A stretch of DNA of 48,986 bases, from assembly GCA_035650735.1 (NCBI GenBank), contig DASRGZ010000204.1, positions 1 through 48,986 on the forward strand. Direction: 5' to 3'. The position numbers are program-made. Shown here piece by piece: positions 11,101 through 14,100 of the stretch. Source of the DNA: Chthonomonadaceae bacterium. Its GTDB lineage: Bacteria; Armatimonadota; Chthonomonadetes; Chthonomonadales; Chthonomonadaceae. Each line of letters starts with the position of its first letter. Positions within the stretch are counted from its first letter, which is position 1.

Positions 11101-14100
11101 TTGCCCGCTGCGATACCTATGCGCTGCCCCAGGTCACCCAGCGACTGCAAACGCTGCTGGACCAGATTGGCAGCCTCCGGCGTCTGGCCGCCGGCAAGAC
11201 CGTTGCCGTCAAGGTCAACCTGACCGGCAATCCTGCGCAGCCCGCGCTGGGACTGCCCGCCAACCGCACCTATCAGGTCCATCCGCATATCGTGCAGGCC
11301 CTGGCGATTCTGCTTGACCGGGCCGGAGCCAGGCGCATCCGGTTTGTGGAAAGCACCTATAGCCCGGCTCCCTTCCAGCAGACCCTGCTCGCGGGCGGCT
11401 GGAACCTGTCTGCGCTGTCGGCCCTGCATGCCCGCGTCGAATTTGAGGATACGCGCAATCGGGGGCAGGGCGCAAAGTATCACCGGGTTGCCGTGCCCTG
11501 GGGAGGCGATCTGTTTCCTGCCTACGAGCTCAATCATTCCTACGTGGATTGCGATACCTATATCTCGTTGGCTAAGCTTAAAAACCACGTGACGGCGGGC
11601 GTCACGCTCTCCCTGAAGAACAATTTCGGTATCACGCCCACGGCCCTGTACGGCCAGCACGAGCCCAACGAGAATAGCTTCAGCAACCGGGGCAGCATTT
11701 TTCATGCGGGGATTGAGCGACCGGCGGCGGGCTTGCCGCAAGAGGTAAACCCGCACGGTCCGCGCCGTCCCAGCTACAGGGTGCCCCGTCACATCGTGGA
11801 TGTGGTCGGGATACGTCCTATCGATCTGGCCCTCATTGATGGGATCGAGACGGTTTCCGGTGGAGAGGGTCCCTGGTGTCCGGGCTTAGCCTTGCAGCGC
11901 CCCCATCTACTGATCGCAGGACGGAATCCCGTCTGCACCGACGCCATTGCGATGGTCTGTATGGGCTATGACCCCCAGGCGCGGTCCGCAACCGGGCCGT
12001 TCCCCGGCGACAACCATCTGGCGCTGGCGGCGCGGCGGGGCCTGGGCGTCCATGATCCACACCGCATCGAGGTGGTGGGCCTGCCCCTGGCGCAAGCAGC
12101 ACATCCGTTCCATTGGGAACCGGCGTGGCGCAATACCTAAGAACAAACCGGTCGCTGGCATGTGGGCGATACCATCTATTTTCACCAGGAGATTCGCGCA
12201 ACAGGTGGGCGGGGCCGGTGTCGAACAGATTCGAGAGCGTGTGGAAGGTGGCAATGTCCTATAGCGCTTTCGTTCAACAGAAAGGGAACCGTTGATGCGT
12301 ATCCAGAATGTCTGCCGCTTCTTCGCTATGGGAGTGGCCGTTATGGGAACGCTGCTTTCCGCGTCTGCGGCAGAAAAAGATGTTGCCTGGGTGGATCGGC
12401 GCGTGCAGCAGTGGCAGCCGACGGCGCGGGAACGGCGGTGGGAAGGAATCGGGTGGGCGAAAGATATTCGCACCGCTATCCAACTGGCAGGCAAGCATCA
12501 GAGGCCGGTGTTTCTGTTTACACTGGATGGGCACATGAGTGTGGGGCGCTGTTGAGGCGGCGCTTTTGCCATGAGAGCCGTGTCGCTCTCGGATCTGCGT
12601 GTGATTGCCATGTTGAACCGGTACTTCGTTCCGGTCTTCGTCAGCAATGAAGATTATGGGGAGAAGGGCTGCGCGCCTCCGGAAGAACGGGCGGAGCTGA
12701 ACCGTATTCATCAGGAAGGCTACGCCGCGCATCTGTCTGTGGGAACCGTGCACGCGTTCGTCCTCTCTCCAACGGGGCATACGCTGGACTCGCTGCATGT
12801 GGCCCAGGCGTTCAAGCCCGATACGCTGCTGGCCATGCTGGAGCGAACCGTTCAGAAGCTGGGAACGACACCGGGCGAACCGGTCTTCCCGCCCGCGCCG
12901 CGGCCTGCGCCCCAGACTCCGCCGGGCGCTTTAATGCTCCACTTAACGGCGCGCTATCTGCAACGCAAAGGAGACGATTACGCGCTTATCGAGGATACGG
13001 GAGGCAACTGGAGCGCGCTTCCTGGGGAAGACTGGATCACGCTGACGCAGGCGCAGTGGAAGCGGCTGCTGCCGCCCGGCCCGGTACGTGTCGGAGGAAC
13101 GTGGGACATTGACCCGGAAGTTGCCGCCAGCCTTCTCCTCCATTTCTATCCCCCGACCGAGAACAACGACCTGACCACGAACCGCATTGACCGCGAGTCG
13201 TTGCAGGCGACGATTCTCTCCGTATCCGGAGGCATTGCGCGCGCCCGTATAGAAGGCGCGCTGACGATGAAGCATCCCTTCTACCACAAAGATGATCAGA
13301 AATTCGCAGAGGCGACTCTGCTTGGATACATCACCTTCGATACCAAGAAACGCAAGGTGCGCTCTCTCCGCCTGGTCACCGAGGATGCGGTCTATCGTGG
13401 CGATGGGTCTCAACTTCCTTATGGGGTGGCCGTTACCAGCCGGTAGACACTCCCAGCCGTGTGGATCAATCTCACGCAGCCTGCTGCTGAGGAGATACGT
13501 CAGCACCGTTGGGAGGGATTACCTACCAGCCTGTGAAGCGGTTGTATAGGGTCGGACTGAAGAGGCGGGGAGGACCTTTAAGGCATCGAAGCGGCTACGG
13601 ATAGGCAAGGGCCGAGAGAAGGGAGCGCGGGATGCGCGTCTTTGTGGCGGGAGCAACAGGCGTGATGGGACGGGCGCTGCTGCCCCAACTGTCGGCGGCG
13701 GGGCACGAGGCCATCGGGCTGGCGCGCTCGCCGGAGAAGCTGCCGCTGGTGGAGAAGTTGGGCGCGAGGACGGCGCGCGGCGATGTGCTGGATGCGGAGA
13801 CGCTGCGCCGTCTTATCCGCGAGACGCAGCCGGAGGCCGTTGTCAACCTGGCGACAGCGATCCCGCGCACGCTGCGGATGAGCCCGAAGGACTGGGAGGC
13901 CAACGACCGCGTGCGCGTGGAGGGAACGGCCAACCTGCTGGCGGCGGCGCGGGAGGCGGGCGTGCGCCTGTTCGTGCAGAATAGCTTCGGCTACGTCTAC
14001 CAGCCGCGCGGCGACCAATGGATAGAGGAGGACGCGCCGCTCACCTCGCAGGACTTTCGACGCTCGGAGGTGCAGGCGGAGGAGGTCGCCCGCTCCGGCA

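Follow-up and report, generated by a model that had tools for sequence, protein, structure and literature searches.

Selenoprotein N (SELENON/SEPN1), mutations of which lead to congenital myopathy, is arranged as a β-sheet middle lumenal domain followed by a thioredoxin-like selenocysteine (Sec) domain, and additionally carries a membrane anchor and an EF-hand. A SelN homolog from Poribacteria has reportedly been described in a doctoral thesis; our literature searches returned no publication dealing with SELENON homologs from bacteria or with the family presented here. In excerpts of the two sources, the chemistry of SELENON is termed enigmatic (PMC12936836) and the protein was once described as animal-specific (PMC2375036). 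The window analyzed here, 48,986 nucleotides of a Chthonomonadaceae genome (contig DASRGZ010000204.1), encodes a protein which, judged from profile comparisons, very probably consists of the two SELENON core domains in reverse order (thioredoxin to β instead of β to thioredoxin). This swapped two-domain form looks new.

Gene calling with translation table 11 splits the locus into two open reading frames of 87 and 291 amino acids. The survey's finding that both (g04991 and g04992) are one exported 383-residue selenoprotein divided by the gene callers holds: the frame is continuous, RC-TGA-GGA is kept in relatives, and export is predicted. Translation yields a single internal TGA (12553-12555), within GRC-U-GGA. 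The AF2 model of the read-through protein reaches a pLDDT of 90.6, in line with the value of about 90 given before, and is of low confidence over residues 1-30. A hydrophobic N-terminus is present in 16 of 19 core members, while three are missing the signal peptide. The scan for promoters and terminators gave none exceeding shuffled sequence.

Table 1. Features of the selenoprotein locus, in window positions.
Feature	Position	Strand	Details
Single gene, 383 aa, Sec at codon 87	12295..13446	+	Stop TAG 13444-13446; alternative start TTG 12292
Probable cleavable signal peptide, residues 1-25, ending A-S-A	12295..12369	+	Hydropathy and by eye
Thioredoxin-fold domain, residues about 30-190, DsbH/UAS/AGR type, probably homologous to the SELENON Sec domain	12382..12864	+	AF2, structure match, profiles
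Active-site pair C86-U87	12550..12555	+	U87 aligned with the first Cys of CxxC thioredoxins
SECIS-type hairpin, 6-bp stem, loop 12579-12584	12573..12590	+	23 nt past UGA; G then U at loop positions 2-3
T151, column of the cis-proline in SELENON and CxxC thioredoxins	12745..12747	+	Alignment
Pro-rich linker joining both domains	12865..12930	+	Sequence, AF2 model
β-sheet domain, residues 213-383, probably homologous to the SELENON middle lumenal domain	12931..13443	+	AF2, profile comparison

The UGA is almost certainly decoded as Sec by means of a SelB-type hairpin 3′ of it. As reported before, TGA is fixed inside RC-TGA-GGA in all 14 related loci fetched as contigs, and tRNA-Sec, SelA, SelB, and SelD are all found in the host genome. 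All 25 matches in the sample of the host's own phylum, located in 22 of 251 genomes, carry one TGA at the same column, and across the 131 TGA-bearing matches of two phylum samples it is never replaced by TAA or TAG. SelA is encoded in 22 of 22 TGA-bearing genomes versus 133 of 251 own-phylum genomes overall, in 43 of 43 versus 86 of 121 in the second sample, and in 65 of 65 versus 219 of 372 when both are pooled, counts that come from related genomes and hence are not independent. Where TGA is missing, TGC or TGT occupies the Sec column in seven of the eight members fetched, both SelA-less genomes included; Cys also occurs at a site for which only C-S and C-G had been listed among read-through homologs. 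In the narrow family, the sole apparent direct Cys homolog (P0116) is a 99-aa database fragment. TGA terminates 485 of about 1,450 long open reading frames in this genome and thus is not generally reassigned. No RNA data set was listed among the sequencing runs with this locus; DNA contigs from such runs, from which the window itself may derive, contain only TGA at the site. That the TGA is a true stop, separating two translated genes or marking a pseudogene, is extremely unlikely: an ATG (12571) does follow 16 nt past it, and 117 of 212 database domain rows begin after the site (69 with 'MRA'), but Met stands at the restart position in only seven of 21 core loci, seven are without a common start codon, and the break lies within one fold. 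The strict link to SelA, the SECIS, and the codon bias likewise oppose termination.

The window gene passes the bacterial SECIS model with a spacing of 23 and −9.9 kcal/mol. Fit to the four-point model of PMC13188914 (loop of 3-9 nt, G in its first two positions, UGA spacing of 16-37 nt, stem of at least 4 bp, MFE ≤ −7.5) was scored with a purpose-written script, not bSECISearch; 82 of 90 TGA members and 20 of 21 core members agree with it, compared with one of five rows lacking TGA, and control windows give 9-27 of 90. The SECIS fold proposed earlier was misplaced: the minimum-energy fold starting at the UGA (z −0.95) is not the conserved element, and the candidate is instead a short hairpin at +21 to +38. 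The stretch +13 to +42 is more stable than its synonymous recodings (mean Z −1.35; 61 of 94 below −1), with −1.7 in the core family, values near 0 in flanking windows, and +0.77 in eight non-TGA rows. Moreover, the hairpin contains the rare Arg codon AGA (R94, 12574-12576), and Arg at U+7 is encoded by CGC in one of 86 cases compared to 464 of 1,097 Arg codons in the domain. Counting against the hairpin, fixed-register covariation is weak (77% paired, a covariation score matched by 70 of 500 shuffles). RNAalifold on 38 rows gave no consensus pair because the stem register shifts between subfamilies, and the Rfam search returned no match.

In the AF2 model and by structure search, residues 47-192 form a DsbH/UAS-type thioredoxin fold. 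DsbH, Thioredoxin_7, DUF255, and UAS structures (2ju5, 3ira, 7tkv, 2dlx) superimpose with Z 11-13 and rmsd 2.2-3.2 over 120-130 residues (2ju5: Z 13.1, rmsd 3.2, 125 aligned). The label 'DsbH-like' is therefore apt for the fold but not for the active site, where U-G-G-A provides neither CxxC nor UxxC and the cis-proline is replaced by T151. VPGUxxT selenoproteins (NF041382, NF041383; OS_HP5) share the thioredoxin subtype and weakly match 11 and 13 of 34 members; however, with 17-25 bits these matches stay far below the cut-offs of 350 and 275, extend over no more than the first 75-95 positions of the models, and concern another motif. The window protein itself was rejected as a VPGUxxT member (17.4 of 350 bits for NF041382, 11.8 of 275 for NF041383; VPGU motif missing), and the two models gave nothing above cut-off in five genomes.

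In agreement with the survey, the protein belongs to no Pfam or NCBIfam family (best PF03190 with 15.7 bits of 27, and NF041382 as above), and Table 1 of PMC13188914, the 2026 selenoprotein catalogue, lists no such family in any of its three parts. Rather than an unrelated new family, the RC-U-GGA group is one clade within a wider CU/CxU superfamily, which is large and uncatalogued. 'Widespread' describes the superfamily, whereas the narrow RCUGG family is patchy (eight of 251 own-phylum genomes at E < 1e-80). TGA is present in 106 of 116 superfamily matches from 121 planctomycete genomes, with up to 14 TGA copies per genome; consequently, planctomycete selenoproteomes are much undercounted. 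T precedes U in 43 of 94 TGA rows, and a sister subfamily carries the motif G-C-T-U. In the tree, the RCUGG clade (support 99/94) stands apart from the SELENON clade (100/100), and the superfamily is parted from DsbH/Thioredoxin_7/DUF255/UAS-type folds at 100/98. PDB sequence searches gave weak thioredoxin matches for the superfamily and none for alignment A4, and the ESM Atlas, queried with the natural Cys homolog P0062, gave only hypothetical clusters (< 0.9), a lead at most. Table S9 of PMC4807772 contains one planctomycete candidate labelled 'hypothetical'.

The C-terminal β domain, previously taken to be of unknown kinship, matches the SELENON middle domain at the profile level. With animal SELENON sequences identified via UniRef names (41-44% identity to alignment A5), 11 of 12 SELENON domains receive 36-55 bits from the superfamily profile, compared with only 25.5 for the top-scoring PDB chain. 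Profile comparison by hhalign pairs the thioredoxin domain with SELENON at probability 96 (E 3.7e-9) and the β domain with its middle domain at probability 92.9 (E 3.8e-7, 118 columns), while the reversed control yields E 0.68 and the best of 67 null families probability 2.3. Six bacterial proteins in SELENON order (L216-L221), found in six of 251 genomes of the G252 phylum, serve as a stepping stone with β-domain probabilities of 95.3 and 99.7. Helix and strand order are alike in two independent AF2 models, a likeness of element order only. Kinship might end at the thioredoxin domain, with β likeness arising from convergent generic strand patterns. SELENON has extra insertions, the broad superfamily profile lowers the β-domain match to probability 21 (E 1e-3), and single-profile HMMER against animal sequences is near zero, with at most 2.3 bits for the core profile on animal middle domains. 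Nevertheless, we regard such convergence as improbable: β domains of the bacterial SELENON-order proteins score 10-28 bits on the core profile, the window domain is the top match of their profile (22.3 bits), the words LP..VG..W, YP, PF-aromatic, and G-x-I are shared in register, and null families stay at or below 2.3. The fold search with the SELENON β domain gave no Foldseek match at E ≤ 1e-3 and a best VIA Z of 5.4, under the noise level, which is no proof of a new fold; no PDB chain matches SELENON beyond the EF-hand.

Window protein and animal SELENON both carry C-U-G at the same alignment column, at the helix start of a thioredoxin-like domain, and share Arg at U+7 (R469 in human numbering in an excerpt of PMC3541580), a β domain, and a predicted extracytoplasmic location. 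A hairpin covers the same codons past the UGA, the animal loop starting at +24 to +28 in 24 of 25 sequences but, unlike the bacterial one, containing the loop G in only five of 25. In contrast, the window protein has the reversed domain order, no EF-hand match (nine of nine A5 members have one), a signal-like N-terminus in place of the membrane anchor, R-C-U-G-G-A instead of S-C-U-G-S-G-R, and G-T-V instead of the aromatic-Pro-Val cis-Pro loop, and it falls outside the SELENON clade. With the bacterial SELENON-order proteins it shares both domains, C-U-G, and predicted export; all six of them fit the bacterial SECIS model, and the elements of L219 and L220 are near-identical to those of L004 and L039. 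Unlike the window protein, however, they place the β domain first and retain the cis-Pro. They group with animal SELENON at 100/100. Since the AU test does not reject these proteins as one clade (p 0.45), nesting of animals among bacteria is not established, and the tree does not settle the mutual position of the RCUGG and SELENON clades.

Sec-less copies of the two-domain module occur as the outer part of ECF sigma, FecR, and kinase proteins, an arrangement that hints at a specific ligand. Of 40 long homologs that read through the site, 13 are ECF, seven FecR, and five kinase fusions, compared to none in 90 TGA members, and an ECF fusion lies immediately upstream in three of 22 core loci. Neighborhoods of the core loci vary and contain no conserved operon. 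A redoxin gene is adjacent in only two of 22 (upstream in L006 and L008), so the neighborhood does not establish a recycling partner.

From these sequence features, an exported, substrate-specific selenol reductase can be proposed, a mechanism to which we give an even chance as a whole. After export via the signal peptide, the selenolate of U87, positioned where the active-site helix begins, would attack an oxidized sulfur of one specific extracytoplasmic ligand, be it a disulfide, a sulfenic acid, or a sulfoxide, while the β domain holds that ligand. Neighboring C86 would resolve the adduct as a vicinal selenylsulfide, for which the C-U pair of thioredoxin reductase, where such a bond occurs, is the model, and a periplasmic thiol relay would re-reduce C86-U87. 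The same analogy has been drawn for SELENON (PMC12839072). The Sec-less module outside ECF sigma factors, FecR anti-sigma factors, and Ser/Thr kinases would bind the same ligand as a sensor and, in some genomes, switch on the neighboring selenoprotein gene. Absence of the cis-proline, a binder of protein substrates, counts against this mechanism. Sec decoding, swapped SELENON domains, reductase, and sensors taken together have, in our estimate, slightly better than even prospects.

The fold neighbors DsbH, DsbD-γ, and ERp19/AGR, predicted export, and the two redoxin genes would also suit a periplasmic disulfide isomerase or reductase of general function, comparable to DsbH or DsbC, with the β domain as scaffold. 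This is unlikely given the missing CxxC/UxxC and cis-proline; moreover, the multiple TGA paralogs per genome and the sensor reuse point to specific ligands, and other proteins of the host, candidates with UxxC, could fill the general role. Also unlikely is the role of a metal or metalloid binder, or an organometal-processing member of the SELENON superfamily, with C86, U87, and H153 as extracellular chelators of Hg, As, Cu, or the like. H153 adjoins the site in most core members, Thr replaces the cis-proline, a possible guard against active-site metal binding according to an excerpt of PMC2757866, and among CU-motif selenoproteins, SaoL and HgcA have mercury compounds as their targets (Table 1, PMC13188914). 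However, H153 is Cys in three of 19 members, metal-resistance genes were not found among the scanned neighbors, and sensor copies without both C and U (G-D, S-D, T-D, F-D) would be unable to sense a thiophilic metal. Finally, the selenolate could act as nucleophile on a small molecule bound between the domains, in dehalogenation, peroxide, or ring-opening chemistry. The sister motif G-C-T-U resembles the C-x-U of deiodinases, and a β domain without structural match leaves the ligand unconstrained; yet none of 34 members matches a deiodinase or peroxidase family in Pfam or NCBIfam, and the fold subtype is DsbH/UAS rather than peroxiredoxin-like, which makes such chemistry rather improbable.

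A broader reading, to which we assign a little less than even odds, joins these observations to SELENON. The β and thioredoxin pair would together be a single catalytic unit of ancient origin in a large, unrecognized superfamily of bacterial selenoproteins (Planctomycetota, Armatimonadota, Verrucomicrobiota), used in both domain orders with an interface-bound specific ligand, as enzyme with Sec and as sensor without. Animal SELENON would stem from this superfamily through transfer from bacteria, with EF-hand and anchor as acquisitions, and its disease-relevant SRE hairpin would be the retained bacterial SECIS. If so, the window protein would model the SELENON catalytic core in minimal, soluble form, and its β fold may be undescribed. 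With both domains available in a soluble protein from bacteria, the structure and the part played by the middle domain would become accessible to experiment, as would substrate trapping, and sensor fusions would offer a genetic read-out for finding the ligand. Further, with the bacterial SECIS and the SELENON SRE covering the same codons, a resemblance already remarked on in the literature would gain a concrete origin. As a separate observation, the SelD gene of the host itself contains one TGA.

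The TGA at 12553-12555, which the survey's finding had placed within one read-through gene (see table), is confirmed in that position by the relatives of the gene, as a single TGA occupies the same column in 14/14 related loci and in all 25 matches from our own-phylum sample (22 of 251 genomes). The nearest named relatives are from Chthonomonadaceae, followed by Planctomycetota and Verrucomicrobiales; the narrow RCUGG family (E<1e-80), hereafter the core, occurs in 8 of the 22 genomes, while the others carry more distant CU or CxU forms of the wider superfamily. Genetic code table 11 splits the gene into 87 and 291 codons. 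Among 212 domain rows from protein databases, 117 start past the Sec site, three stop at G-R-C, and 90 cross it, 48 of these with Cys, a figure that counts in the query itself and as many as six CxxC rows. The Met used as restart by gene callers is present in only 7/21 core loci.

The genome encodes tRNA-SeC, SelA, SelB, and SelD, the SelD gene having a TGA of its own. TGA terminates 485 of ~1,450 crude ORFs of at least 400 aa and is thus not generally reassigned. Within the phylum, SelA is found in 22/22 genomes with a TGA member versus 133/251 overall. Among 121 sampled genomes of Planctomycetota, the phylum of genome G252, 49 yield superfamily matches (116, of which 106 with one TGA); SelA accompanies the TGA form in 43/43 genomes versus 86/121 overall, and all 35 SelA-less genomes lack this form. 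Fisher values for this link are overstated because related genomes are not independent. TGC or TGT occupies the Sec column in 7 of the 8 non-TGA members examined (from 10), both SelA-less genomes included. Judged from these sequence comparisons, the TGA of the window gene is a Sec codon.

A SECIS-type hairpin lies farther out than the minimum-energy fold starting at the UGA, which is unremarkable (z -0.95) and was rejected as the conserved element. RNAalifold detected nothing, in agreement with the compensatory pairs reported missing before. Compared to synonymous recodings of the same protein, positions +13 to +42 from the Sec codon fold with a mean Z of -1.35 over 94 TGA rows, four UxxC thioredoxins included (61 below -1). 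The mean falls to -1.7 for the 21 core rows, is +0.77 for the 8 rows without TGA, and stays near 0 in five flanking windows; the window gene alone gives p 0.03-0.10. The four constraints of PMC13188914, by which we define a SECIS pass, hold in 82/90 superfamily TGA rows and 20/21 core rows, as against 1/5 non-TGA rows and 9 to 27/90 in control windows. Moreover, loop position 1 or 2 is G in 90/90 superfamily TGA rows, and the stem Arg codon avoids CGC (1/86 vs 464/1,097) and favours AGA/AGG (34/86 vs 97/1,097). Pair counts in one fixed register display little covariation, since the loop start varies from +22 to +29 among subfamilies. Of the UxxC genes in the same genome, the one on C170 has a hairpin in the register of the window gene, while the two on C64 have no clear hairpin within the window tested.

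In the AF2 model of the window protein (pLDDT 90.6, pTM 0.84), residues 47-192 resemble DsbH/UAS-type thioredoxins (Z 11-13), and residues 213-383 make up a sheet-rich domain. U87 takes the column of the first Cys of CxxC, with C86 as partner and no Cys at U+3; the cis-proline column is Thr. A hydrophobic signal-like N-terminal segment is found in 16/19 core members. No Pfam or NCBIfam model exceeded cut-off for 34 domain rows and 12 full-length representatives. The second superfamily member of this genome has a signal-like start and a beta domain and retains the cis-Pro.

Kinship with animal selenoprotein N (SELENON) was first suspected from the motif context around Sec. Scanning metagenomes with a sister-subfamily pattern gave 97 loci, 37 of them animal-type; nine full-length sequences of this type are selenoprotein N by UniRef names. 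A superfamily profile built without such sequences scores 36-55 bits on 11/12 of their thioredoxin domains, and a core-only profile 22-35 bits, falling to 5-24 and 2-14 bits when 15 selected columns are masked. The best PDB chain reaches 25.5 bits on the superfamily profile, and UxxC/CxxC thioredoxins of the same genome at most 3.5 on a SELENON profile. By hhalign, the core thioredoxin domain matches SELENON (probability 96, E 3.7e-9) and the core beta domain its middle region (92.9, E 3.8e-7, 118 columns); controls gave E 0.68 for a reversed alignment and at best probability 2.3, E 0.021, for 67 unrelated families. The broad superfamily beta profile attains a probability of only 21 on this region, and HMMER by itself at most 2.3 bits with the core beta profile on animal sequences.

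A SELENON-profile search across 251 genomes from the phylum of G252 retrieved six bacterial proteins in the SELENON order, beta then thioredoxin, with one TGA each (E 1e-45 to 1e-32); it retrieved none in the window's own phylum. Probabilities for the beta domain of these six are 95.3 (E 2.4e-8) against the window family, where the domain of the window protein is the best hit, and 99.7 against animal SELENON. By these profiles, they are a stepping stone bridging the two beta domains. When the SELENON beta domain was modelled independently (pLDDT 90.7), its structural elements followed one another as they do in residues 213-383 of the window protein, and no solved structure matched it clearly. 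Profile matches, stepping stone, and shared element run together argue that the window protein comprises both SELENON core domains in swapped order. It is not a SELENON by membership, as order, EF-hand, anchor, cis-Pro, and clade differ, yet it shares the SELENON core. The earlier interpretation is partly supported: it stands as to the selenoprotein and is not supported as to a beta domain without known kin.

A tree of 60 thioredoxin domains (133 columns; 54 superfamily and six DsbH-like outgroup rows) separates the superfamily from the outgroup at 100/98, with the RCUGG family as a clade at 99/94. A further clade (100/100) unites the animal and bacterial proteins of SELENON order. The tree gives no firm branching order among subfamilies; a single clade of the bacterial proteins is not rejected (AU test, p 0.45). 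Provided that the root is right, this topology would nest the SELENON lineage within the bacterial superfamily. The divergent sequence L188 may come from a unicellular eukaryote. In animals, the loop of the hairpin following the UGA (SRE) lies at +24 to +28 in 24/25 sequences, over the same codons as in the bacterial SECIS; the loop G is kept in just 5/25. PMC12936836 describes the SRE as apparently similar to bacterial SECIS, and PMC3541580 lists the SRE variants G463V, R466Q, and R469W/Q; the R469 column is that of the near-invariant Arg of the TGA rows (86/94). By inference, the SRE would be a SECIS relic.

Within a chosen subset of 40 long read-through homologs, 13 are fused to ECF sigma factors, 7 to FecR, and 5 to Ser/Thr kinases, mostly with a degenerate site. 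Among genomic loci, three of the five members without TGA are fused to an ECF sigma factor and lie immediately upstream of a Sec gene; no such fusion type occurs in 90 TGA members within the DNA examined. For a module that stays on as a sensor once its C-U pair is gone, binding of a defined ligand is the simplest reading. G252 has 20 superfamily-profile matches, 17 with TGA (14 TGA copies at E<=1e-10), and G337, G350, and G366 have 7 each; so many paralogs per genome suggest varied specificity. For these two reasons, we favour, at about even chances, an exported substrate-specific selenol reductase that would act via the vicinal C86-U87 pair, with substrate, reductant, and interface all putative, over a metal binder, which is unlikely, a general Dsb-like role, somewhat less likely again, and other nucleophilic chemistry, the least probable.

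The family was said to be missing from the 2026 selenoprotein list, and indeed Table 1 of PMC13188914 has no SELENON-like or RCUGG entry. In the text of deep-Sep (PMC12013277) covered by a term search, SELENON, Planctomycetota, and Armatimonadota are unmentioned. A literature search, with most subscription papers outside its scope, returned no paper on bacterial SELENON homologs or the RCUGG family.

Features of the window gene, its surroundings, and related loci
Feature	Location	Strand	Remarks
Window gene	12295-13446	+	383 aa; single internal TGA at codon 87, G-R-C-U-G-G-A
Short SECIS-type hairpin	12573-12590	+	conserved element
TAT-signal DUF362 protein	10881-12140		flanking; not kept beside homologs
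NAD-dependent epimerase-like protein	13632-14588		flanking; not kept beside homologs
82-bp imperfect palindromic repeat	13442-13523		starts at stop codon of window gene
Second superfamily member (L040, L046)	G000:C224:42303-42743		TGA in E-R-C-U-V-F-A-G; ~446 aa
Four DsbH-type thioredoxin genes	G000 C170:23967-24182; C64:40365-40556 (two genes, L050); C48:19061-19267		TGA in UxxC
Core member with ~450 extra C-terminal residues	L005:130-2610	-	extension without Pfam match
ECF sigma factor with Sec-less module copy	L035:2181-3944; L036:1960-3966; L037:2105-3967		directly upstream of Sec gene
Bacterial SELENON-order selenoproteins	L216-L221 (G259, G271, G282, G386, G352, G276)		C-U-G-S-G; without EF-hand; SECIS fits model
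Divergent SELENON-like sequence	L188:1592-2956		metagenome contig; GC 0.50; long branch
Tandem TGA-bearing superfamily genes (L058/L083)	G253:C3:229462-231064		R-C-U-G-G-A and N-C-U-M-A-A

The database proteins P0072 and P0136 have Trp at the Sec column, possibly from a gene caller reading TGA under code 4. The 82-bp repeat, without a match in Rfam, has 132 blastn matches in the genome, many at 95-100% identity, on a contig of very high depth in sequencing runs, and is REP- or MITE-like.
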